8,330 bases of DNA, taken from IMG/VR virus record IMGVR_UViG_2537562231_000028; one strand, written 5' to 3'. The position numbers were made by a program, and so were the translations under genes. Positions 1 to 8,330 of this stretch are shown piece after piece. The notes under the pieces were generated by a model. That model was not told where the DNA came from and ran no database searches. It worked only from the letters and a program-made list of their open reading frames with translations. Position 1 is the first letter of the stretch. Each line of letters opens with the position of its first letter. This DNA comes from a virus (Duplodnaviria; Heunggongvirae; Uroviricota; Caudoviricetes).

Positions 1-1242
1 ATGGCGAGAAAAACACACCCATTAACCACAGTGCAGATCAAAGCAGCCAGACCAGCGCAAAAGGAGTACACCCTGCAGGACGGCGGAGGGCTTTTTCTCC
101 TGGTCAAACCGTCTGGATCAAAACTCTGGAGATTTTCCTACTACCGACCATCGGACAAAAAAAGAATATTGCTGAGTTTTGGATCGCTTGAAGATGTTTC
201 CCTGGCTGATGTCAGAAAACGCCGTAGCGAGTACAGGACGTTAATCAGTGCCGGAACTGACCCGCAGGACCACGAGAGGCAAAAAAGAGAGACAGAGGCC
301 CGAAGACAAGGGAACACGTTCGAAAATGTGGCGGCGGCATGGTACCAGGTGAAAATCAGCCAGAATCTGGCCCCCAACACGATTAAAGACATCTGGCGTT
401 CGCTGGATAAATATGTATTCCCGTTCATCGGCAACACGCCAATAGATACCCTCACCGCCCGAAGGTTCGTTGAAGTGCTTACCCCCATCAAGGAGCGCGG
501 CAACCTGGAAACACTCAAGCGGGTTTTACAGCGCGTTAATGAGGTAATGGATTACGCCGCCAACAGTGGGCTGATTGATGCCAATCCGGCTATGAATGTG
601 CGTAAGGCGTTTCCCTCACCTGTAAAAAAACATATGCCAACAATCCGCCCCGAACAGCTGCCGGAGCTTATGCAGGCTTTATCAGTATCGGCAACAGAAC
701 GGCAGACCAGATTACTGATTGAATGGCAGTTACTGACCGTAACCCGTCCCGCCGAAGCGTCATCAACGCGGTGGGATGAAATCAACCTGGACGCGAAGCA
801 ATGGACGATACCTGCCGGACGTATGAAGATGCGCAGGGATCACGTTATCCCGCTTTCCGGTCAGGCTATGGCGGTGCTGGAGGCCATGAAACCAATCAGC
901 CACCACCGCAATTACGTTTTCCCAAGTCTGAAAGACCCACAGCAGCCGATGAACAGCCAGACAGCTAACGCAGCATTGCGGCGTATGGGATTCGCTGGCG
1001 TGCTGGTGTCTCATGGATTACGCGCCATATTCAGCACAGCAGCGAACGAGGAAGGATTCGAGCCGGACGTAATAGAGGCGGCACTTGCCCACGTCGACAC
1101 CAACGAAGTTAGACGGGCATACAACCGGAGCAACTACATAGAAAAACGCATCGTGCTGATGCGCTGGTGGGGCGAATTTGTCGAGGCTGCGGCGACGGGC
1201 GTAACCCTCGCCAGTGGTAAAAGGGGTATCCGAGCCGTGTAG
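1..1242 (+). CDS. int: Tyrosine site-specific integrase, P4-type (N-terminal arm-binding domain plus C-terminal catalytic domain)
   Basis: 413 aa ORF. N-terminus LTTVQIKAARPAQKEYTLQDGGGLFLLVKPSGSKLWRFSYY matches the arm-DNA-binding domain typical of P4-like integrases. C-terminus carries HGLRAIFST and RAYNRSNY, consistent with the His-x-x-Arg and Tyr nucleophile motifs. ATG at position 1, so the att site or tRNA target would lie upstream, outside the window. Confidence 0.93.
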   Translation: MARKTHPLTTVQIKAARPAQKEYTLQDGGGLFLLVKPSGSKLWRFSYYRPSDKKRILLSFGSLEDVSLADVRKRRSEYRTLISAGTDPQDHERQKRETEARRQGNTFENVAAAWYQVKISQNLAPNTIKDIWRSLDKYVFPFIGNTPIDTLTARRFVEVLTPIKERGNLETLKRVLQRVNEVMDYAANSGLIDANPAMNVRKAFPSPVKKHMPTIRPEQLPELMQALSVSATERQTRLLIEWQLLTVTRPAEASSTRWDEINLDAKQWTIPAGRMKMRRDHVIPLSGQAMAVLEAMKPISHHRNYVFPSLKDPQQPMNSQTANAALRRMGFAGVLVSHGLRAIFSTAANEEGFEPDVIEAALAHVDTNEVRRAYNRSNYIEKRIVLMRWWGEFVEAAATGVTLASGKRGIRAV

Positions 1243-1250
1243 CTGTACAG

Positions 1251-1295
1251 AAAACCAGTAAAAACTACGAAAACCATGTAAAACCGTCGTATAAT
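1251..1295 (+). promoter_or_regulatory. Four phased A-tracts at 10 bp period ending in a perfect TATAAT -10 hexamer (1290-1295)
   Basis: AAAACCAGTA / AAAACTACGA / AAACCATGTA / AAACCGTCGT at 1251-1290, then TATAAT at 1290-1295. Helically phased A-tracts predict intrinsic curvature. No good -35 hexamer seen. Confidence 0.35.
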
Positions 1296-1319
1296 TGCAT
1301 CAAATTTAACGACAAGGCT

Positions 1320-1571
1320 GTGAAACATGAAACCGTTAAGATGCAAAAAAATATCAGATGCAATTGCGACGGGCTGCAACTGGCCCTGATGGTTCAGCAT
1401 GAATTTTGGTCAACCTACGATCCAGAGGACAGAACGACGGCCCCATCAAAAAAACAGGTAGTAGACTTTCTGGTATCCCGTGGCGCTTCCAGAAATCTGG
1501 CGGTAAGTATTGATAAGGTCGTACGTCCGGCATCTATGAAGATCGGAGGCAGGCCCAAAAAATGGCGGTAA
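1320..1571 (+). CDS. Hypothetical small protein (76-83 aa); start uncertain (GTG 1320 or ATG 1341); could instead be a noncoding transcript
   Basis: ORF sits between a candidate promoter (TATAAT 1290-1295) and a strong intrinsic terminator (1582-1605). RBS is weak at both candidate starts and no family is recognised. Confidence 0.3.
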   Translation: MKHETVKMQKNIRCNCDGLQLALMVQHEFWSTYDPEDRTTAPSKKQVVDFLVSRGASRNLAVSIDKVVRPASMKIGGRPKKWR

Positions 1572-1581
1572 CAATCCTAGA

Positions 1582-1605
1582 AGCGGCAGAAATGCCGCTT
1601 TTTTT
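1582..1605 (+). terminator. Rho-independent terminator
   Basis: Perfect 7 bp stem AGCGGCA / TGCCGCT with GAAA loop (1582-1599), followed by a run of seven T (1599-1605). Confidence 0.7.
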
Positions 1606-1631
1606 ATAATTCCATTTCAAATCATCAATAT

Positions 1632-1722
1632 AAAAAACGGTGTATACCGTTTAAAAACGGTGGGAACTGTTTTTACCCATATCCGATGATTTACCGTATT
1701 TGTCACCGGAATACACCGGATT
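1632..1722 (+). promoter_or_regulatory. Operator-like repeat cluster upstream of alpA
   Basis: Direct repeat AAAAACGGTG at 1633-1642 and 1653-1662; palindrome AACGGT-GTAT-ACCGTT at 1636-1651; dyad AAAAAC-N10-GTTTTT at 1653-1674; tandem CACCGGAAT / CACCGGATT at 1704-1722. GGTGTAT (1640-1646) recurs inverted as ATACACC (1711-1717). Confidence 0.4.
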
Positions 1723-1738
1723 CACAAGGTAAATCACG

Positions 1739-1945
1739 ATGGAAGCAATCAGAAAAATTATCTTTCGCCAGGAAGTAAAAAAAATTATCCACATCAAGGC
1801 AGACAGCACGCTGCAAAGCATGATCAACGCCGGAGAATTTCCGCAAGGTTTTCGCGTTGGTTTACGCCGTCGCGGATGGTATGAGGATGATGTGTTGGCC
1901 TGGCAGAAAGAACGCGAACAGGAAGCACGCGGAACGGCTGCTTAA
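1739..1945 (+). CDS. alpA: AlpA/Vis-family DNA-binding protein (phage transcriptional regulator or excisionase-like, MerR-type HTH)
   Basis: 68 aa. FRQEVKKIIHIKADSTLQSMINAGEFPQGFRVGLRRRGWYEDDVLAWQ fits the AlpA family pattern (HTH, then G-FP, then a conserved Trp). AAGGT lies 9 nt upstream of the ATG. Position next to int is typical. Confidence 0.8.
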   Translation: MEAIRKIIFRQEVKKIIHIKADSTLQSMINAGEFPQGFRVGLRRRGWYEDDVLAWQKEREQEARGTAA

Positions 1946-2327
1946 CGGGTATCACAGATATGACAAACACGAAAAAAGCGGCCCCGATATGGAGCCGCCT
2001 TTCTGAACAATTAACCCGCTGCGCCTTATGTGTATGTGATCCCAAACATAAGCACGGGGATGATAGCCGCTATCAGGCTGGTGGGCAATGCAATCAGTCT
2101 GGTTCAGTTCGTTGCCATAACTGCGAAGCTCTCTCCTTTGATGAGTATTCTTTAAGGTACTTCTCAAGGGCAAAAGAACACGGCGCGAATCGTTCTGATT
2201 CATGCTCTTTCTTTCTGCGTCGTCTTTTTCGTGCAGGTGATGTTTTTTTGGTTGATTCTTCGTTGGTCATTGTGTGCGCCTGTAAAGCAATGCGCCGTAG
2301 TACCTCACACCACGGCGCTGGTGATGG

Positions 2328-2507
2328 TTACTCCTGCTCTTTGGCCTTGCGGCGCTGGCGGCGTTTGATTTCGCCTTTAACGGCAGTAACTATAAATTGC
2401 GCTTTGCTTTCACCTTCATCTAAATTTTTTTCTAAGTCTGCAACAACATCATGCGGGAATCTGGCATTTAACTGTTGCGACTTATTATTTGTTGAACCTG
2501 TTGCCAT
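2328..2507 (-). CDS. Small ribbon-helix-helix-like DNA-binding protein (59 aa), candidate satellite repressor or autoregulator
   Basis: Internal ATG at 2505-2507 (minus strand) preceded by GAGAGGA with about 7 nt spacing; stop TAA at 2328-2330. MATGSTNNKSQQLNARFPHDVVADLEKNLDEGESKAQFIVTAVKGEIKRRQRRKAKEQE reads as beta strand (QLNARFP), helix, loop, helix, then a basic tail. The N-terminal extension from the TTG at 2672 has no RBS and looks like non-protein sequence. RHH fold is inferred by eye. Confidence 0.55.
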   Translation of the reverse strand: MATGSTNNKSQQLNARFPHDVVADLEKNLDEGESKAQFIVTAVKGEIKRRQRRKAKEQE

Positions 2508-2690
2508 TACTGAATCCTCTCTAAGTTGGTGCGATTCAGTATACACAAAAAAATTCAGAGAAAAAGGCTTGAAGTGCGATTCACTTGCTGATAGGTTAAA
2601 AACAGATGGTGCGATGCACCAAATAACAACGCCCCGCAGTGCGGGAACACATACGGGGCGTCTAACCAACAACGTAAACTAGGAGCCGTT
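2508..2690. promoter_or_regulatory. Divergent control region between the RHH gene and the rightward operon
   Basis: GTGCGATTCA at 2529-2538 and 2574-2583, variant GTGCGATGCA at 2609-2618. On the minus strand a TATACT -10-like hexamer sits directly upstream of the first repeat copy. GC-rich dyad CGCCCCG ... CGGGGCG (2630-2660) with an inner CCCGCA-G-TGCGGG palindrome and no downstream T-run. Confidence 0.5.
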
Positions 2691-2888
2691 ATGGTTGCCG
2701 TAAATCATATACCACACCTTGTACACACACAAACGGCCTTTGTGTGGCGTTTTCTGGCCCTGAGTGCCGGAGAATCTCAAATCATCCACGTAACCGCCTG
2801 GACGGAACGCGAAGCGCGTAGCCGTTGCCCGTCCGGTTGTGTTGCTGTATTCGCCGCCCGTATTCGTCAGGGGGTGTGCCATGCTTAA
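2691..2888 (+). CDS. Small protein (65 aa), possibly Icd-like (host cell division inhibitor family seen in P4-like elements); tentative
   Basis: AGGAG at 2681-2685, 5 nt before the ATG. VWRFLALSAGESQIIHVTAWTEREARSRC...VAVFAARI resembles, from memory, the W-F-A ... TE-EAR ... FAAR pattern of Icd-like proteins. No alignment was possible. Confidence 0.5.
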   Translation: MVAVNHIPHLVHTQTAFVWRFLALSAGESQIIHVTAWTEREARSRCPSGCVAVFAARIRQGVCHA

Positions 2889-3066
2889 AACCTTCCGTGT
2901 ATTTGCCAGCGCTGTTAACCCACTAGGCCACACAATTGGTATCGCTCAGAATGTGAAGGCTGTTAATGTTCAGACGGCTATTGCTGCGGTGAGAAGCGAA
3001 TCATCAGAATATGGCTTATCACAAGTCATTATTTCAGCAGTGTATGAATTAAAAGAGGTGCATTAA
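2881..3066 (+). CDS. Hypothetical small protein (61 aa), possible distant paralog of the upstream gene
   Basis: ATG 2881 preceded by AGGGGG with about 8 nt spacing and overlapping the upstream stop (ATGCTTAA). MLKTFRVFASAVNPLGHTIGIAQNVKAVNVQTAIAAVRSE loosely echoes the upstream F-R/W-F-A ... A-x-TE/Q pattern. Confidence 0.45.
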   Translation: MLKTFRVFASAVNPLGHTIGIAQNVKAVNVQTAIAAVRSESSEYGLSQVIISAVYELKEVH

Positions 3067-3257
3067 TGAAGGAAATTACATTACACGAAGCCGCTGAACG
3101 TGCGCACCAGACAGAAATTATTTGCCGCCTTCTTGAGGTATACCCTGATAAATTAAATGATGGTGATATATCCGCATTAGCTGGCCTTCTGGCAAAACTG
3201 TCAGGAAGTGTTGCGCTGTGGTTAATTGATGAGAGAGCCGAACGCTATGAAAAATAA
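3066..3257 (+). CDS. Hypothetical small protein (63 aa) in an AT-rich cassette
   Basis: ATG overlaps the upstream stop (TAATG); AAAGAGGTG upstream. About 43% GC by hand count against about 56% for the gene upstream. No family recognised. Confidence 0.5.
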   Translation: MKEITLHEAAERAHQTEIICRLLEVYPDKLNDGDISALAGLLAKLSGSVALWLIDERAERYEK

Positions 3258-3489
3258 TAAACTGGCGACCAGTGAATTAAGAAGCCTTGCCAACAGCGCA
3301 ATATCTTTAAACAACGCAGCAAACGAAGTAATGAATATGTGGCTTCAGTCGCTGGTGAATAATGAACGCAATGAATCAACTGCAAGATTAATATTAGCCG
3401 TTTCTGAATTACTGGATAGTTCAACCAGCAAAATAGAGAGCATATCAGAGAAGATTAACGGCTTATCAGGTCACGCTATCGGGGAATAA
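3247..3489 (+). CDS. Hypothetical Asn/Ser-rich small protein (80 aa; alternative ATG at 3229) in an AT-rich cassette
   Basis: ATG 3247 lies just before the upstream stop (3255-3257). About 39% GC by hand count. Sequence rich in N, S, L, E and likely helical. No family recognised. Confidence 0.45.
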   Translation: MKNNKLATSELRSLANSAISLNNAANEVMNMWLQSLVNNERNESTARLILAVSELLDSSTSKIESISEKINGLSGHAIGE

Positions 3490-3494
3490 AAATA

Positions 3495-3794
3495 ATGAAA
3501 CTTAAATATCCTGGCTTAACTGACAGCGGCAAAACTCGCACTAAATTCATGCGCGGGGATATTTACCGCGACCAGTACGGCGGCACGGTAATGATTAAGG
3601 GCGTGGAGGAACGGCGCGTAACCTACCATCGTGAAGGCTACGAATATGATTGCGTGATGCCTGTTTATCAGTTCCGGCGTGATTTTTCTCTGGTACAGGC
3701 AGCGCCCCGCAGTAAACCAACCAGCAGGGAGAAAGCACGCGCCAATATTCAGGAAATAAAAAAGATGCTTAACGTATTCAGGGGTAAAAAATGA
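3495..3794 (+). CDS. Hypothetical protein (99 aa) translationally coupled to the primase gene
   Basis: ATG 3495 follows the upstream stop by 5 nt. Its stop overlaps the primase start (ATGA at 3791-3794). Basic C-terminal tail. No family recognised. Confidence 0.5.
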   Translation: MKLKYPGLTDSGKTRTKFMRGDIYRDQYGGTVMIKGVEERRVTYHREGYEYDCVMPVYQFRRDFSLVQAAPRSKPTSREKARANIQEIKKMLNVFRGKK

Positions 3795-5545
3795 AACTGG
3801 CACCGAACGTAAAAAAACAGCCACGCGGAATAAAACACAAAGACACAGAGGTGATTATTTTCGCGGGTAGTGATGCGTGGGCACATGCAAAACAGTGGCA
3901 GGAGCAGGACGGCCCCGCATCCGGCGATAATGTGCCTCCTGTGTGGCTTGGGGAGCAGCAGTTATCAGAACTGGATAAGCTGCAAATTGTGCCGGAAGGC
4001 AGAAAATCCGTGCGCATATTCAGGGCCGGACATCTTGCACCAGTAATGATCAAGGCGATTGGTCAAAAGCTGGCGGCGGCTGGTGTACAGGATGCAAATT
4101 TTTATCCTGAGGGTATGCACGGCAAGGAGGTGCAGAACTGGCGCGAATACCTGGCCCGTGAACGCCAGAATCTTTCTGATGGTCTGGTCATTGAGCTTCC
4201 GGTAAAGCAAAAGGCGCAACTTTCGCAGATGGCGGACAGTGAGCGCGCGCAGCTGCTTGCCGATCGCTTTGATGGCGTTTGCGTACATCCTGAAAGTGAA
4301 ATTGTTCACGTATGGCGCGGCGGGGTATGGTGTCCGGTCAGCACAATGGAACTTAGCCGCGAAATGGTGGCGATCTATTCAGAGCACAGGGCCACTTTCA
4401 GCAAGCGCGTAATCAATAACGCCGTGGAAGCGTTAAAAGTTATTGCCGAACCAATGGGCGAGCCGTCCGGCGATTTGCTGCCGTTCGCCAATGGTGCGCT
4501 TGACCTGAAAACGGGGGAATTTTCCCCGCACACGCCGGAGAACTGGATCACCACGCACAACGGCATTGAGTACACGCCACCAGCACCAGGGGAGAATATC
4601 CGCGACAACGCGCCAAACTTTCATAAATGGCTTGAGCACGCAGCCGGAAAAGACCCGCGCAAGATGATGCGTATATGTGCCGCGCTGTACATGATTATGG
4701 CGAACCGGTACGACTGGCAGATGTTTATTGAGGCCACCGGAGACGGCGGGAGCGGTAAAAGTACATTCACACACATAGCCAGCCTTCTGGCAGGGAAACA
4801 GAACACGGTAAGCGCTGAAATGACATCGCTTGATGATGCTGGTGGACGTGCGCAGGTTGTCGGGAGTCGTCTTATCGTCCTGGCTGACCAGCCGAAATAT
4901 ACAGGCGAAGGAACGGGCATCAAGAAAATCACGGGCGGCGACCCCGTGGAAATTAACCCGAAATATGAAAAGCGTTTCACGGCGGTAATCAGGGCGGTGG
5001 TGCTGGCGACCAACAACAACCCGATGATATTCACCGAACGGGCCGGAGGTGTGGCACGTCGTCGCGTGATTTTCCGTTTCGACAATATTGTTAGTGAGGC
5101 CGAAAAAGACAGGGAGCTACCGGAAAAAATTGCGGCTGAAATCCCCGTCATTATCCGCCGCTTGCTGGCGAACTTTACCGACCCTGAAAAGGCACGGGCT
5201 TTACTCATTGAGCAGCGTGACGGTGATGAAGCTCTGGCAATAAAGCAACAGACGGATCCGGTTATTGAGTTTTGCCAGTTCCTGAATTTTCTGGAGGAAG
5301 CGCGCGGCCTGATGATGGGGGGCGGTGGCGATTCAGTGAAGTACACGACCAGGAACAGCCTTTACCGCGTCTATCTGGCGTTTATGGCATACGCAGGCAG
5401 GAGCAAACCGCTAAACGTGGCTGAGTTCAGCAAGGCCATGAAGCCAGCGGCGAAAGTTTACGGGCATGAATATATTACGCGAAAAGTTAAGGGAGTAACG
5501 CAGACCAACGCAATTACAACAGACGATTGCGACGCGTTTTTATAA
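3791..5545 (+). CDS. Satellite replication protein: primase/helicase with a D5-like (SF3-type) P-loop NTPase domain
   Basis: 584 aa. Walker A GDGGSGKST; downstream hydrophobic strand plus acidic residue (RLIVLADQP) consistent with Walker B. GGGG 6 nt before the ATG. Position immediately upstream of an iteron cluster matches Pri-Rep of PICIs and alpha of P4. Confidence 0.88.
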   Translation: MKLAPNVKKQPRGIKHKDTEVIIFAGSDAWAHAKQWQEQDGPASGDNVPPVWLGEQQLSELDKLQIVPEGRKSVRIFRAGHLAPVMIKAIGQKLAAAGVQDANFYPEGMHGKEVQNWREYLARERQNLSDGLVIELPVKQKAQLSQMADSERAQLLADRFDGVCVHPESEIVHVWRGGVWCPVSTMELSREMVAIYSEHRATFSKRVINNAVEALKVIAEPMGEPSGDLLPFANGALDLKTGEFSPHTPENWITTHNGIEYTPPAPGENIRDNAPNFHKWLEHAAGKDPRKMMRICAALYMIMANRYDWQMFIEATGDGGSGKSTFTHIASLLAGKQNTVSAEMTSLDDAGGRAQVVGSRLIVLADQPKYTGEGTGIKKITGGDPVEINPKYEKRFTAVIRAVVLATNNNPMIFTERAGGVARRRVIFRFDNIVSEAEKDRELPEKIAAEIPVIIRRLLANFTDPEKARALLIEQRDGDEALAIKQQTDPVIEFCQFLNFLEEARGLMMGGGGDSVKYTTRNSLYRVYLAFMAYAGRSKPLNVAEFSKAMKPAAKVYGHEYITRKVKGVTQTNAITTDDCDAFL

Positions 5546-5553
5546 TTTTTTGT

Positions 5554-5790
5554 AAAAGCCCTCTACCCCATCTACCTGAATGAAATAAACGCATATTATT
5601 CAACATGATAAGTGGGTAGAGGGCCAGGTAGAAGGCTAATAAAAGCTCTCTACCTCTTCTACCTGATTTTATCAGTTTCAGGTAGCAGGGTAGACGGCAG
5701 GTAGAGGAGCCCAAAAAGCTATCTACCCGCTGAAAGCCGCGCCATTACTGACATGATGAGCATTCGGGTAGATGGGTAGAGGGGGGGAGG
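5554..5790. repeat. Iteron-type replication origin: three modules of forward TCTACC-type repeats paired with inverted GGTAGA-type repeats
   Basis: Forward blocks 5554-5578 (AAAAGCCCTCTACCCCATCTACCTG), 5641-5666, 5714-5728. Inverted blocks 5613-5635, 5679-5709, 5765-5787. AT-rich spacers between them (for example 5579-5612). Directly downstream of the primase/helicase stop. Confidence 0.7.
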
Positions 5791-5891
5791 CACAACTAAA
5801 AACTTTTTAAACGAGGGGGTGAAAATAAATGCGCATACATCAAAATCACTTAACAAACATGCCAGCCGAAAACATGAATCAGGGGCGACAA

Positions 5892-6137
5892 ATGACCAAA
5901 ATTCGCAGAGACAGAACAGAGCCAAAATATAAAGCGTTAGACATGACTGAGCATACCTTAAAGGTGGCAATCAGAACGATAGACCGCCACGCGGGGGAAG
6001 GATACGCGAAAGCACATCCCGACCTGATAAGCGCATTCATGACCACGACGGCGGCAAACTTTGCCACGCTGACAGAACGGGAGATTGCCGAAGCGGAACA
6101 GGTAACAACCATCAACGTTAAAAGCGCTGGAGAATAA
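5892..6137 (+). CDS. Hypothetical small protein (81 aa from ATG 5892; the track ORF begins at 5829)
   Basis: GGGG at 5882-5885, 6 nt before ATG 5892. Followed 19 nt later by a strong intrinsic terminator. No family recognised. Confidence 0.45.
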   Translation: MTKIRRDRTEPKYKALDMTEHTLKVAIRTIDRHAGEGYAKAHPDLISAFMTTTAANFATLTEREIAEAEQVTTINVKSAGE

Positions 6138-6155
6138 CCGAAGTAGTGAACACAT

Positions 6156-6179
6156 AGCCGGAGCAATCCGGCTTTTTTT
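6156..6179 (+). terminator. Rho-independent terminator
   Basis: Stem AGCCGGA / TCCGGCT with GCAA loop (6156-6173), then a run of seven T (6173-6179). Confidence 0.7.
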
Positions 6180-6189
6180 CGATCTCGCA

Positions 6190-6219
6190 TATCTTAAAAA
6201 ATGGTTGATTGATTATAAT
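6190..6219 (+). promoter_or_regulatory. Candidate sigma70-type promoter with a perfect -10
   Basis: TATAAT at 6214-6219; weak -35 candidates (CTTAAA 6193-6198, or TTGATT 6205-6210 which is too close). Sits between a terminator and an AGGAGG-led gene. Confidence 0.35.
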
Positions 6220-6267
6220 CTATCGAAAATACTGATTATTAGATGATAAGCATCAGGAGGAAACAAA

Positions 6268-6462
6268 GTGGAACAGATAAAGCAAAGCGCTACCGTGATG
6301 ATTGATCACGAGATCCTAAACGAGCTTAAAAAACTTCAATTCGATGTTATTCGCCGGATGAATGAAGCTGGTATATACGGCAGAGCCGCCACGCCAACAG
6401 TAGGCCATCTTGCTCGCGTGCTGTTACGCGAACGCCTGGGCATTGCAACAGGTGAGGAATAA
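6268..6462 (+). CDS. Hypothetical small protein (64 aa, GTG start), possibly a DNA-binding regulator
   Basis: AGGAGG at 6255-6260, 7 nt before GTG 6268. SATVMIDHEILNELKKL ... TPTVGHLARVLLRERLG could form a strand-helix-helix arrangement, but this is an uncertain reading by eye. Confidence 0.45.
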   Translation: MEQIKQSATVMIDHEILNELKKLQFDVIRRMNEAGIYGRAATPTVGHLARVLLRERLGIATGEE

Positions 6463-6464
6463 CA

Positions 6465-6626
6465 ATGGCTATCACAGAACGCGAGGCAAGCATCATTAAA
6501 GCCATTGGCGAGGAAACAAGAGACACGATAGCGCCATTAATGGAAAAGATCGCAGAGCTTGAGAGACGAATAAACAAGCTGAGTGATGAAGTTGAAGGCC
6601 TGATCTCGTTACTCGGTGAGCAATGA
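6465..6626 (+). CDS. Hypothetical small coiled-coil-like protein (53 aa); absent from the supplied ORF track
   Basis: ATG 6465 lies 2 nt after the upstream stop, with GGTGAGGAA just before it. Hand translation gives MAITEREASIIKAIGEETRDTIAPLMEKIAELERRINKLSDEVEGLISLLGEQ, with heptad-like spacing of hydrophobics; stop TGA 6624-6626. Confidence 0.4.
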   Translation: MAITEREASIIKAIGEETRDTIAPLMEKIAELERRINKLSDEVEGLISLLGEQ

Positions 6627-6628
6627 CA

Positions 6629-6680
6629 GGGGGGGGGAGTGTTCCGGCCGGAAAGTCGATCGCCCTGGACACCGCCCCCC
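6629..6680. promoter_or_regulatory. G9 / C6-flanked imperfect dyad containing nested palindromes
   Basis: G-run 6629-6637 and C-run 6675-6680. GGGGGGGAGTGTTCC (6631-6645) pairs imperfectly with GGACACCGCCCCCC (6667-6680). Loop holds the palindromes CCGGCCGG (6643-6650) and CGATCG (6657-6662). No downstream T-run. Confidence 0.35.
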
Positions 6681-6709
6681 GTCTCATTCGTAGAAAATTT
6701 TGCTTTTCA

Positions 6710-6733
6710 AAAAAGTTACACGAAAAGTTACAC
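6710..6733 (+). repeat. Tandem AAAAGTTACAC repeat (2 copies) upstream of terS
   Basis: AAAAAGTTACAC at 6710-6721 and GAAAAGTTACAC at 6722-6733. Same core as the repeats inside terS at 6953-6986. Confidence 0.6.
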
Positions 6734-6755
6734 CCCCTCAAAACGAGGTTTTTGC

Positions 6756-7244
6756 ATGGCATTAACGACCAAAAAAAAGCGGTTTGCTGATGCGTTATCA
6801 AGGGGCGCAAATCCCACGGAAGCCGCTATACATGCGGGATACAGCGAAAAGACCGCAAGGGTCAAAGGCTGGCAGCTATCCAACGATCCTGAGGTGAAAA
6901 AGTATCTTAAGGCTGTAACTCCTGATGTAACTTTTCAGGTTACAAAACCGAAAAAAGTTACAAAGAAAGTTACCGAAAAAGTTACACCGGAACGGGCATC
7001 AATTAACACCATTGAGATGATGGATAACGGCCTACCCGACCCCATCAAAGCAATGGGCAGGATACTGATTGACAACATGGACACAGATCCAAAACTGGCT
7101 TTAGATGCCGCGTTTAAGCTGGCCCAGTTCACCCACCGCAAGATCGGCAGCATTGGGAAAAAAGAGGTTAAAAAACTCAATGCCGCTAGTGTCTACTCAA
7201 ATCGGTTCCCCATCCCTAAGCCACCAACAGACTTAAAACACTGA
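6756..7244 (+). CDS. terS: Terminase small subunit (TerS) with N-terminal HTH
   Basis: 162 aa from ATG 6756 (CGAGG 8 nt upstream); the track ORF from 6639 is an unlikely extension. KKKRFADALSRGANPTEAAIHAGYSEKTARVKGWQLSNDPEVKKYL matches the TerS N-terminal HTH pattern (AAI-AGYS-KTA). Confidence 0.7.
   Translation: MALTTKKKRFADALSRGANPTEAAIHAGYSEKTARVKGWQLSNDPEVKKYLKAVTPDVTFQVTKPKKVTKKVTEKVTPERASINTIEMMDNGLPDPIKAMGRILIDNMDTDPKLALDAAFKLAQFTHRKIGSIGKKEVKKLNAASVYSNRFPIPKPPTDLKH
6915..6986 (+). repeat. Cluster of six GTTAC/GTAAC-core repeats inside terS, including three tandem AAAGTTAC(A) units
   Basis: GTAACT at 6915-6920 and 6927-6932; GGTTACA 6939-6945; AGTTACA 6957-6963; AGTTACC 6969-6975; AGTTACA 6980-6986. 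Encodes the KVT-repeat linker KPKKVTKKVTEKVTPE. Confidence 0.6.
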
Positions 7245-7255
7245 GGTAGCGAACT

Positions 7256-7417
7256 ATGAGCGAATACATCACAGACCCTATTGATGTACTCACGGAAATC
7301 ATGAACGACAAGCAGCAGTCGACCGAAATACGGTTACAGGCCGCCGCTGTTCTGATGCCATATTTTCACGAAACACTAAACCCGTGCTTCCAGGAGGAGG
7401 AAGAAGATGATCTGTAA
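7256..7417 (+). CDS. Hypothetical small acidic-tailed protein (53 aa); absent from the supplied ORF track
   Basis: ATG 7256 lies 11 nt after the terS stop, with GAGGT upstream. Hand translation: MSEYITDPIDVLTEIMNDKQQSTEIRLQAAAVLMPYFHETLNPCFQEEEEDDL. Its 3' end overlaps the start of the capsid gene. Confidence 0.4.
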   Translation: MSEYITDPIDVLTEIMNDKQQSTEIRLQAAAVLMPYFHETLNPCFQEEEEDDL

Positions 7418-8330
7418 AAACATGAAAGGCGTGTCAGCAGTTCGCGCCGCCAGCGTGCTGGCATCGTGTAAATTTAGCCATGCTGACGCTATAGAGATGA
7501 CGAAAAGAAATGATCCGGCAGTATCGTTATTTCTTGAAAAATCCGTAGTAGCAGGAATGAACACGGATAACATGCCGTCGCTGGTGGCAGAGCCGATAGT
7601 AAGAGAGCTTGGCGAGTATATTTTTTCGCAGTCTGTACCAGGCAAGCTAATCAGCAGCGCGCTAAATCTTCCTTTTGGCGCAAAATTGCAGTCAATATCA
7701 GGCAAGGGCAGTAAATGGCTTAAAGAAGCCGAAGAAATCCCTGTCAAAGAGGGAGAAGTAAACGAAAGTGCGCTAAAACTGTGCAAACTTGGCGCTATTG
7801 TGATGCTGAATAACGAGCTAATCAAATTTAGCACCCCTGGTACAAATTCAGCGATCAGAGACTTGATCACATCGGAATCGGTGAAAGAAATAGATAAAAA
7901 ATTTCTTTCCAGTGACCAGGAGGTGGCTGGCGTATCCCCTGAGGGCGTGCTTAATGGTGCTGATGAGGCCGAAAACTTCATAGAGCTTTTCAAAAAGCAC
8001 ATAGCGAACGGTAACACGCTTTCCACGTCGTCGCTAATCTTGCCCGTAGAAAACGCCTTACAGCTTACTGATGCTGAGTTCTGGCAGATAGAGCTTTTGA
8101 GAATACCGGTAATTGTGAGCGAACAGGCGGATCGCATGATGCTGATAGACGCTCAAAAGCTGATTATTAACGTTGAAGCCACGGTTATAACCCCAACTGA
8201 TGAGGCGGTAATAAAAACCGAATCAGGGGCGGTTAGCCTTTTCCAGAATGACGCTACAGCGTTCAGGGCAATCACCTATTGCGGATGGCAAAAACTCGAT
8301 AAGGCCGTCACCGTTCTGGCGAAAAGCTGA
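7407..8330 (+). CDS. Putative major capsid protein, HK97-like fold (candidate; no N-terminal delta domain apparent)
   Basis: 307 aa. AGGAGGAGG 6 nt before ATG 7407. KLGAIVMLNNELIKFS ... AIRDLITSESVKEIDKKFLSSDQEVAGVSPEGVLNG resembles the HK97-family pattern of a hydrophobic strand followed by a Gly-rich P-x-G-hh-N-G loop (compare HK97 gp5 LLNGDGTGDNLEGL). Call made by eye. Confidence 0.5.
   Translation: MICKNMKGVSAVRAASVLASCKFSHADAIEMTKRNDPAVSLFLEKSVVAGMNTDNMPSLVAEPIVRELGEYIFSQSVPGKLISSALNLPFGAKLQSISGKGSKWLKEAEEIPVKEGEVNESALKLCKLGAIVMLNNELIKFSTPGTNSAIRDLITSESVKEIDKKFLSSDQEVAGVSPEGVLNGADEAENFIELFKKHIANGNTLSTSSLILPVENALQLTDAEFWQIELLRIPVIVSEQADRMMLIDAQKLIINVEATVITPTDEAVIKTESGAVSLFQNDATAFRAITYCGWQKLDKAVTVLAKS

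Follow-up and report, generated by a model that had tools for sequence, protein, structure and literature searches.

What kind of element is carried by the 8,330 nucleotides of IMG/VR record IMGVR_UViG_2537562231_000028, this being the whole stretch of DNA that was analysed and which is described here as ‘the window’? A sequence-only reading had taken it to be the left arm of a phage satellite possessing its own replication, packaging-specificity, and capsid genes, and in particular a satellite of the capsid-forming class. Of that description what stands is a phage-inducible chromosomal island (PICI) type of satellite, one with its own replication genes, small terminase gene (terS), and capsid gene, while both ‘left arm’ and ‘capsid-forming class’ fall away. 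That is, the window very probably contains all of the genes of a classical Escherichia coli PICI, one that does not form its own capsids, with the life cycle and the helper phages that are proposed below. Elements of this kind are already known, i.e., they have been catalogued, and a near-identical copy of this one is found in RefSeq. The useful outcome is a correction, to an element which is complete at 8.9 kb, which is not capsid-forming, and whose classification is ordinary. Residual interest is mechanistic, as the island combines its own small terminase protein (TerS) with a lone capsid homologue, the nearest phage relatives of both being found in a head module of enterohaemorrhagic E. coli (EHEC) prophages, some of them carrying Shiga toxin (Stx) genes.

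The extent of the element is seen from a copy in E. coli Z1323HEC0108 (NZ_CP148374.1), which, by megablast against complete E. coli genomes, is 99.9% identical to the window, differing by four substitutions plus one G in a poly-G tract. A tRNA-Pro gene in this copy is located 218 bp upstream of the integrase gene (int). The tRNA region ends in 17 bp, CTCTCGTGCCGACCAAA, that constitute an att core which recurs about 355 bp downstream of the capsid gene, as measured from its stop codon, and this right-hand site (attR) is followed by the host gene yejO, here a pseudogene starting approximately 470 bp past that same stop codon. Just inside of each island end there is, in addition, a 26-bp repeat, TTTTAGTTATACGTTTAGTTATACGG, identical at both ends and resembling those which arm-binding integrases use. 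Upon joining of the outer flanks, that is, upon reconstruction of an empty attB, a sequence results that 3,784 E. coli genomes out of 5,426 carry without interruption, the best-matching of which display 100% identity and are annotated with yejM, tRNA-Pro, and yejO. Given these att repeats, host flanks, and contiguous empty sites, the island therefore is a discrete insertion of 8,917 bp, lying between yejM and yejO at the 3' end of tRNA-Pro, and the window, which runs exactly from int start codon to capsid stop codon, holds its every gene. The att repeats and the integration target that the sequence-only reading had anticipated thus indeed are present. Extending outward nevertheless reveals that the whole of the coding content is already in hand, with no further head genes, and it is for this reason that ‘left arm’ does not hold.

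Host genes flank the island directly, i.e., there is no contiguous prophage alongside it that supplies large terminase (terL), tail, or lysis genes. Neither is the island a portion of a plasmid backbone, as its terS-capsid module is found at 226 places, all of which are chromosomal, with 0 on plasmids. Those plasmid matches to the window which do occur involve either megabase-sized ‘plasmid’ records or instead the regulation/replication block only, reaching up to position 6126, and therefore they do not place terS within a plasmid backbone. Megablast of the window against the phage collection returned zero matches.

Internally, the order of genes is as had been read from the letters, with int, alpA, divergent regulator, small-gene operon, primase/helicase, iteron-containing origin of replication (ori), terS, and capsid each found at its expected place, and with each of the family assignments, as made by motif recognition, upheld in profile searches of the proteins, though for AlpA below the Pfam cut-off. 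The window otherwise consists of one series of mostly rightward genes, displays a mild positive GC skew throughout, and was found to contain no tRNA gene. Terminator-like hairpins at 1579-1602 (plus strand), 2004-1972 (minus strand), and 6156-6173 (plus strand) split the island into integrase, regulatory, replication, and packaging units. A sigma-70 promoter scan yielded 6 sites versus 9.6 in shuffles, which is to say fewer than in the shuffled sequence.

Five PICI core components are present in the island: an integrase, an AlpA-like protein, a primase-replicase, a capsid homologue, and a small terminase. The regulator of a classical PICI may be of AlpA type or else of MerR/Stl type (Fillol-Salom 2018; de Sousa 2023). 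As with PICIs, the island also is a discrete att insertion with direct repeats, its 8,917 bp comparing with about 9-15 kb. Profiles from Pfam, PHROG, and NCBIfam, when run over every annotated open reading frame (ORF) in the 8.9-kb island, identified no tail, lysis, portal, or head-tail connector genes. In the SatelliteFinder scheme (de Sousa, Fillol-Salom, Penades, Rocha 2023) a ‘Type A’ PICI is defined by five core components, with tails, holins, portal, and head-tail connectors forbidden; 375 such elements have been described, 97% of them in E. coli and with medians of 9.5 kb and 15 proteins, as delimited from int to last core gene (PMC10085698). The window agrees with Type A in its content, order, size, and delimitation, where assignment to Type A means that this published definition was matched using the Pfam, PHROG, and NCBIfam profiles.

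Capsid-forming PICIs (cfPICIs), of which EcCIEDL933 is the prototype, are instead elements of about 15 kb that carry genes for capsid, protease, portal, head-tail connectors, HNH, TerS, and TerL (bioRxiv 10.1101/2022.09.08.507074; PMC10085698). In proteobacterial cfPICIs these genes are found in the order capsid-protease-portal-connectors-hnh-terS-terL, and only tails are stolen from helper phages (bioRxiv 10.1101/2022.09.08.507074). The island shares with EcCIEDL933 a general int-alpA-replication left part, a capsid-family gene, and terS. It differs in being 8.9 kb in length, in having terS located before capsid, i.e., a reversed order, and in possessing no other cfPICI head gene. Specifically, no ORF and no profile match was found for terL, HNH, prohead protease, or head-tail adaptor, nor does the island have room for them. 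Lacking terL, HNH, portal, protease, and connectors, and with terS and capsid in reversed order, the island does not belong to the capsid-forming class in which it had been placed.

A further comparison is with EcCICFT073, the prototype PICI of Gram-negative bacteria (Fillol-Salom et al. 2018, 2019), which in the CFT073 genome is located between roxA and phoQ. The two elements have in common an AlpA-type regulator (in the window a probable one), a divergent YlcI/YnfO gene together with a small basic ORF, an Icd-like gene, small ORFs, rgdR, the primase-helicase gene (Pri-Rep), the origin, and the ORF which comes next. Window positions 3480-6126 (DUF4222, primase, ori, next ORF) are 89% identical in DNA to EcCICFT073, and the divergent-regulator region is 77.5% identical. 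In both elements, furthermore, a lone capsid homologue is found downstream of the replication block. Experiments with EcCICFT073 have shown that its induction and transfer require Int, AlpA, and Pri-Rep, and that its alpA is switched on by helper phages; helper-dependent induction, specific packaging, high-frequency transfer, and interference with the helper likewise have been shown for it (PMC6092414). Given the close homology of the two elements, the functions of Int, AlpA, and Pri-Rep therefore should be transferable to their counterparts in the window.

Outside of this shared block the two elements differ. Their integrases are not the same, nor are the sites, which are roxA|phoQ for EcCICFT073 versus tRNA-Pro for the island, and the EcCICFT073 cassette, consisting of SSB, PerC, the 351-aa capsid homologue c1499, and a decoration-protein homologue, is unrelated to that of the window. 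Both c1499 and the decoration homologue bear the same kind of annotation as their counterparts, capsid and decoration, in CFT073 lambda-like prophages, and no sequence similarity was found between c1499 and the window’s capsid homologue. EcCICFT073 lacks TerS, with cos sites plus Rpp hijacking the TerS of phages lambda and phi80 (PMC6739421), whereas the window encodes a TerS of its own, along with a mini-ORF that resembles the TerS core and a capsid homologue of HK97 type. Judging from these alignments, the island is a mosaic, that is, of a tRNA-Pro integrase module, an EcCICFT073 regulation/replication block, and a different packaging cassette. As an observation in its own right, the CFT073 genome also has a lambdoid prophage adjoining icd.

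The replication module begins with the Pri-Rep primase-helicase (584 aa; 3791-5545, plus strand), which matches D5_N, DUF5906, Pox_D5, and TIGR01613 (P4-family primase), is 97% identical in protein to the EcCICFT073 primase, and has its start overlapped by the end of the DUF4222/RgdR gene (3495-3794 versus 3791-5545). The replication origin (5553-5785) directly follows, with GGTAGA/TCTACC iterons of either orientation surrounding a stretch that is rich in A+T. All 11 of the window’s GGTAGA hexamers lie within 5562-5780, while approximately 2.0 would be expected and 0 of 200 shuffles reach 11. This origin sits in the 89% identical block common to EcCICFT073, the pri-ori segment of which replicates a plasmid (PMC6092414). 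Closing the replication block is an 81-aa ORF (5892-6137, plus strand; phrog_1231, 2.7e-49), after which comes the terminator-like hairpin at 6156-6173, and it is within this gene, at 6126, that the block which is shared with EcCICFT073 stops. Two of the only four substitutions separating the window from its 99.9% copy, those at 5616 and 5630, fall within the origin iterons.

The packaging cassette is where the island’s more distinctive features are found. TerS (162 aa; 6756-7244, plus strand) matches PF03592 (Terminase_2), which covers only the N-terminal, DNA-binding part, as well as phrog_641 over its full length (3e-43). A search of its sequence against PDB gave only weak matches to TerS N-termini, with E of 0.2-1. 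It is 47% identical to the TerS of PPompW/Stx-type lambdoid phages, with the N-terminal helix-turn-helix (HTH) and especially the C-terminal half conserved, and with a middle segment that is both shorter than and unrelated to that of the phage protein. Overlapping terS is a cluster of AAGTTAC repeats (6709-6988), of which two are upstream of the gene, with one inverted and three direct copies inside of it. All six of the window’s exact copies fall within 6713-6985, as compared with an expectation of approximately 0.87 and with 0 of 200 shuffles reaching six, and the repeats are kept in the O111 copy. Those located inside of terS encode KKVTKKVTEKVT, in the very segment of TerS which is unlike the phage protein, as would be expected were it the DNA repeat rather than the peptide that is under selection. 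The cluster thus is a candidate pac or TerS-binding site. In a candidate helper phage it is another repeat, ATGTTAAC, that forms a cluster upstream of the phage terS (6800-6927 of its stretch), and different repeats in combination with similar TerS C-termini would fit with a TerL partner that is shared but DNA recognition that is not.

Between terS and the capsid gene is a 53-aa TerS-core-like ORF, or ‘mini-TerS’ (7256-7417, plus strand), which has an acidic tail and which matches positions 89-125 of phrog_641 (E=3.5e-7). It is 43% identical to a 54-aa ORF found at the same position in Serratia. BLASTP of this protein against the island TerS and against phage TerS returned nothing, and it is the PHROG profile that links it, weakly, to TerS. 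Conceivably the protein is a TerS core without the DNA-binding part, which might enter TerS rings or poison them. In pac-type Staphylococcus aureus pathogenicity islands (SaPIs) a satellite TerS redirects the helper’s large terminase to satellite DNA (PMC6739421). The island resembles these in having its own small terminase, and its 53-aa ORF, standing beside terS, could, as a speculation from the profile match, act in a Ppi-like manner.

The last gene of the island, at 7407-8330 (plus strand), encodes a lone HK97-fold major-capsid-protein homologue of 307 aa (PF05065, 1e-6). To our knowledge, no lone capsid homologue from an E. coli PICI has so far had its function demonstrated. Word-indexed searching recovered 6 and then 16 clusters of relatives, and it was an exhaustive protein search that revealed the family, in which close relatives all are 307-330 aa in length and distant ones largely are fusions of 600-740 aa, with the match falling in the C-terminal half. 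The capsid homologue can be aligned, across 93% of its length and at 25% identity, to residues 291-633 of a protease-capsid fusion from phages, and by this alignment would correspond to the capsid half of that fusion, minus the protease and scaffold part. An AlphaFold model based on a 44-sequence alignment had a mean predicted local confidence (pLDDT) of 90.8 and a predicted template-modelling score (pTM) of 0.87, while six close homologues gave a pLDDT of 51.5, which is unusable. Foldseek of the better model against PDB found HK97-fold capsid proteins as best matches, among them Bxb1 (E=1e-11), HK97, the 80alpha protein in SaPI1 capsids, and, at E of about 1e-8, chains from 7rwz, an entry for the SaPIbov5 procapsid with Ccm in it. 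Identities across the 50 matches listed are 9-18%, and a sequence search against PDB found nothing.

Single capsid homologues with no other head gene also are found in SaPIbov5, i.e., Ccm (Carpena 2016, PMC5052747; Hawkins 2021, PMC8569155), and in PmCI172. Ccm occupies pentamers and forces small isometric capsids by mixed assembly (PMC8569155), and PmCI172, carrying its lone capsid homologue, makes small capsids (PMC6092414). With Ccm the island’s protein shares a fold but not sequence kinship, hosts and helpers are different, and a change in capsid size is, for the island, an inferred one. SaPIbov5, in addition, is a cos island without its own TerS, whereas this island has one. A Ccm-like homology to a helper capsid would consist here of the 25% identity over 93% of length, and this is to the fusion protein of a helper that is a candidate rather than established.

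Which phages might serve as helpers? By tblastn against the phage collection, the nearest phage relatives of TerS and of the capsid homologue are in the same set of genomes, consisting of Stx1a-, Stx2c-, and some Stx2a-converting phages, of ‘PPompW’ prophages, and of phage 1717, all of which are EHEC lambdoid phages. Their head module has the order terS, terL, a 645-aa protease-capsid fusion, and portal, and 1,255 of the 5,426 genomes possess it, EHEC having as many as 8 copies. The module and the island cassette are co-resident in at least three genomes: O55:H7 DEC5A, strain 20.1, and O157:H7 Z1766. The predicted helpers, as based on these similarities, are lambdoid prophages possessing the terS-terL-protease/capsid-portal module (Sakai Sp6, PPompW, Stx1a, Stx2c, and some Stx2a). 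Also among the best TerS or capsid matches are the ‘phage’ records ON470625.1, ON470597.1, and ON470626.1 (18-24 kb; Escherichia vB_EcoS-705R7 etc.) as well as ON170149.1 and relatives (about 13 kb; Ralstonia YO088_5 etc.). The small size of these records suggests satellites or partial genomes rather than phages.

The cassette, consisting of two hypothetical genes, terS, the 53-aa ORF, and capsid, is encountered in a number of settings. In O157:H7 and in the human commensal UCPROB-001 it ends an island located at cspD/yljB | clpS and associated with a different integrase. In O111:H- 11128 the same cassette end is present at the tRNA-Pro site, there with a RepA-type helicase replacing the primase. 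A Serratia aquatilis island consists of int, a gene for an HTH protein, a small gene that is divergent, small ORFs, a primase of D5_N type, and three small ORFs, and only then of the cassette, with a TerS-like protein of 124 aa (29% identity), the 54-aa ORF (43%), and a capsid homologue of 311 aa (46%), followed by host genes. In a Klebsiella aerogenes relative the capsid homologue comes after two small ORFs, with no terS-like gene seen, and 765-aa and 69-aa ORFs are found between it and the host gene fis. Comparison of these arrangements indicates that there is module shuffling around one terS-capsid cassette, with integrases, sites, and replication genes exchanged. Relative to the O111 copy, ratios of nonsynonymous to synonymous change (dN/dS) are 0.15 for capsid, about 0.28 for terS, and 0.15 for the 53-aa ORF (0.15-0.29 for the cassette). 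The terS-capsid module is present at full length and at least 95% identity in 220 of 5,426 E. coli genomes, always on the chromosome, and the island cassette is concentrated in O157, O26, O111, O121, and O55 strains. From the dN/dS values and this full-length retention, the genes of the cassette appear to be functional.

The life cycle that we propose for this island, understood as a complete, classical PICI, would begin with a helper phage turning on alpA, with AlpA then driving both Int-mediated excision and expression of the rightward operon, by homology with EcCICFT073, for which this has been demonstrated by experiment. Pri-Rep would copy the resulting circle from the GGTAGA iterons into concatemers, a function that is suggested by its identity to the EcCICFT073 protein. 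For packaging, the island TerS, by way of its helper-like C-terminal half, would recruit helper TerL, and would recognise the island’s own AAGTTAC cluster as its packaging site. The 53-aa TerS-core-like protein, more speculatively, might interfere with or join TerS rings. The capsid homologue may then co-assemble with the helper capsid in a Ccm-like manner, giving rise either to smaller shells or to a biased assembly.

A number of points weigh against this account. Induction, packaging, helper identity, and capsid-size change all are inferred. The AlpA assignment lies under the Pfam cut-off. The AAGTTAC repeats could be a coding-repeat accident within a divergent segment of terS. Co-residence with the candidate helper module is a matter of three genomes among the matches listed and is circumstantial. 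With EcCICFT073, lastly, deletion of c1499 left both transfer and interference unchanged, with the island found in full-size capsids (PMC6092414). It follows that an E. coli PICI which carries a single capsid homologue does not necessarily use it to redirect the size of capsids.

How might the same locus be read otherwise? That it is the left arm of a larger cfPICI, with the remaining head and packaging genes to the right, would account for int, alpA, and primase being followed by terS and capsid, since the left part of cfPICIs is common to classical PICIs (PMC10085698). But attR and yejO are found within about 470 bp of capsid, the empty site reconstructs exactly, and the same abrupt end is seen in O157:H7, UCPROB-001, O111, and Serratia; with terL, portal, protease, HNH, and connectors absent, and with gene order reversed, this explanation is exceedingly improbable. 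Scarcely better is the prospect of a P4-like satellite that exploits P2-type helpers, the sequence-only reading having invoked P4-like elements as well. The primase has a P4-family C-terminal domain, there are Icd-like and AlpA-like genes and an integrase of P4-type architecture, and P4-like elements score as Type C PICIs (de Sousa et al., PMC10085698). These P4-type features (TIGR01613 primase, AlpA-like protein, integrase) nonetheless are common to PICIs and do not discriminate. Psu, Delta, Sid, and Epsilon had no Pfam or PHROG match, and there is no unassigned ORF of fitting size left over for them. Terminase and capsid relatives are in lambdoid rather than P2-like phages, and the replication block is that of EcCICFT073, which lambda and phi80 mobilise. 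What remains of ‘P4-like’ is the primase family, the AlpA-like gene, and the Icd-like gene, without psu-delta-sid or epsilon.

Decay is a different sort of explanation, i.e., that the island is an immobile remnant of a cfPICI or prophage head fused to an integrase, with capsid and terS lacking function. A single head gene is left, its capsid profile match is weak (E about 1e-6), and the capsid homologue of EcCICFT073 could be deleted without phenotype. Yet att cores and arm-type repeats are intact and identical, all ORFs are intact, and dN/dS versus O111 is 0.15-0.29 for capsid, terS, and the 53-aa ORF. The trio of these genes is kept in Serratia at 29-46% protein identity, capsid last, and that the cassette is joined to integrases and replication modules of more than one kind implies that it was mobile recently. 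The model of the capsid protein, furthermore, predicts a complete and confident HK97 fold. Because the cassette is conserved across settings and under purifying selection, a decaying remnant therefore is unlikely, and distinctly so. A good deal harder to set aside, although we doubt it, is that the island is just as described but that its capsid homologue does not resize: instead it might build a whole small shell upon helper portal, protease, and scaffold, or poison helper head assembly. Consistent with such a role are a modelled full-length HK97 fold with an N-terminal helical region, purifying selection on the gene, and 25% identity to the putative helper protein, which is rather distant for mixed capsomers. 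Building of a shell is made less plausible by the absence of the protease and scaffold part that is fused in phage relatives, so that unaided assembly is unlikely, and Ccm, the one solved precedent for a lone homologue, works by mixed assembly.

Returning to the complete, classical PICI, a broader view, which is offered tentatively as being possible rather than probable, is that of one PICI backbone with exchangeable hijack cassettes, each carrying helper-type capsid homologues. EcCICFT073 under this joint reading would carry lambda E/D-like genes plus Rpp, and the window an HK97-type capsid, TerS, and a TerS-core decoy, the latter cassette being aimed at EHEC lambdoid/Stx phages and making small capsids of mixed subunits. 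If true, then the island and its 220 relatives among complete genomes would parasitise Shiga-toxin phages, and the output of Stx phages in EHEC could be lowered or reshaped by them. The same island also carries RgdR, an activator of the LEE (locus of enterocyte effacement), and would then bear on both EHEC virulence and Stx-phage spread.

The remaining features are described here from left to right. The tyrosine integrase (413 aa; 1-1242, plus strand) matches Phage_integrase, Phage_int_M, and Arm-DNA-bind_3 (E 6e-29 to 1e-21) as well as NF007246 at 550 bits, and is predicted to insert into the tRNA-Pro 3' end. In the accessory slot between int and alpA is a hypothetical ORF of 76 aa (1341-1571, plus strand) that is annotated in the 99.9% copy and that has no match in Pfam, PHROGs, NCBIfam, or PADLOC; the hairpin at 1579-1602 follows directly. 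Upstream of alpA is a tandem 20-bp repeat (1633-1672), each unit of which is palindromic, and which is a candidate alpA control or operator site. The AlpA-like winged-HTH activator/excisionase itself (68 aa; 1739-1945, plus strand) matches PF05930 at E=3.5e-3, i.e., 17.6 bits versus a Pfam cut-off of 21, and matches phrog_66, ‘excisionase and transcriptional regulator’, at 5.5e-7. It is 28% identical to EcCICFT073 AlpA (E=2e-7), and its position fits. The protein thus probably is the AlpA-type regulator of a PICI, though without reaching the curated Pfam threshold.

Next comes a leftward pair of genes that is ended by a strong minus-strand terminator (2004-1972) with a 14-bp stem. The distal member of this pair is a very basic ORF of 58 aa (2094-2270, minus strand) which is unannotated in the near-identical RefSeq copy and whose counterpart in EcCICFT073, the annotated protein C_RS30800, is 74% identical to it (E=4e-30). 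The other is a divergent YlcI/YnfO-family regulator of 59 aa (2328-2507, minus strand; NF041551, 1.5e-17; phrog_949, 3.5e-24). Gram-negative PICIs have been described as transcribed rightward only (PMC6092414). In the divergent control region, from the YlcI/YnfO gene to the Icd-like gene, three copies of GTGCGATTCA are found (2529-2618), which are candidate operators.

The rightward small-gene operon (2691-3794) has overlaps of the ATGA type and includes four small overlapping genes (all plus strand), found at 2691-2888 (Icd-like), 2881-3066, 3066-3257, and 3247-3489, as based on profiles and on annotation of the copy. The Icd-like gene matches NF033153, and matches across 2691-3489 are to phrog_29966/1743, phrog_3672, phrog_1478, and phrog_5796. 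A scan against Rfam, at E<=0.1, found no RNA family, and therefore no C4/CI-like antisense RNA beside the Icd-like gene. The operon ends with an RgdR orthologue (DUF4222; 99 aa; 3495-3794, plus strand; PF13973, 2e-23), with its RGD motif at residues 20-22. RgdR is a prophage-borne activator of LEE type III secretion and a repressor of motility in EHEC (PMC3378721, PMC10877973). The orthologue is 83% identical to C1493, the functional CFT073 variant, and has D10, R20, Q27, K35, H45, and R61, that is, all six of the active-type residues by which ECs1581, the EHEC protein that is active, differs from the ED1a variant, which is inactive (PMC3378721, PMC10877973). It is the sole accessory function recognised in an element from which variable cargo might have been expected, with PADLOC finding no defence-system proteins among the ten scanned small ORFs of no assigned function.

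The packaging cassette opens with two small ORFs of 64 and 53 aa (6268-6626, plus strand) that are conserved in O157, O111, and UCPROB-001, and that gave no family match in Pfam, PHROG, or PADLOC. RefSeq calls the UCPROB-001 orthologue (stretch 8829-8990) of the second of these, the 53-aa ORF at window 6465-6626, an ‘antitermination protein NusG’, which, lacking profile support, probably is an over-annotation. Between these ORFs and terS is found a poly-G tract that pairs with a downstream C-run in a stable hairpin (6629-6680, plus strand), with the tract itself at 6629-6637. Its length is G9 in the window, G10 in NZ_CP148374.1, G9 in the O157:H7 copy, and G7 in O111 and UCPROB-001. The hairpin is about -31 to -34 kcal/mol in E. 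coli copies, with z-scores over three folds of -1.9 to -2.6, and at the corresponding place in the Serratia island (9340-9397 of its stretch) there is likewise a G-run/C-run hairpin, of -30 kcal/mol but of different sequence. What is seen could be a regulatory hairpin or instead a slippage-prone tract.

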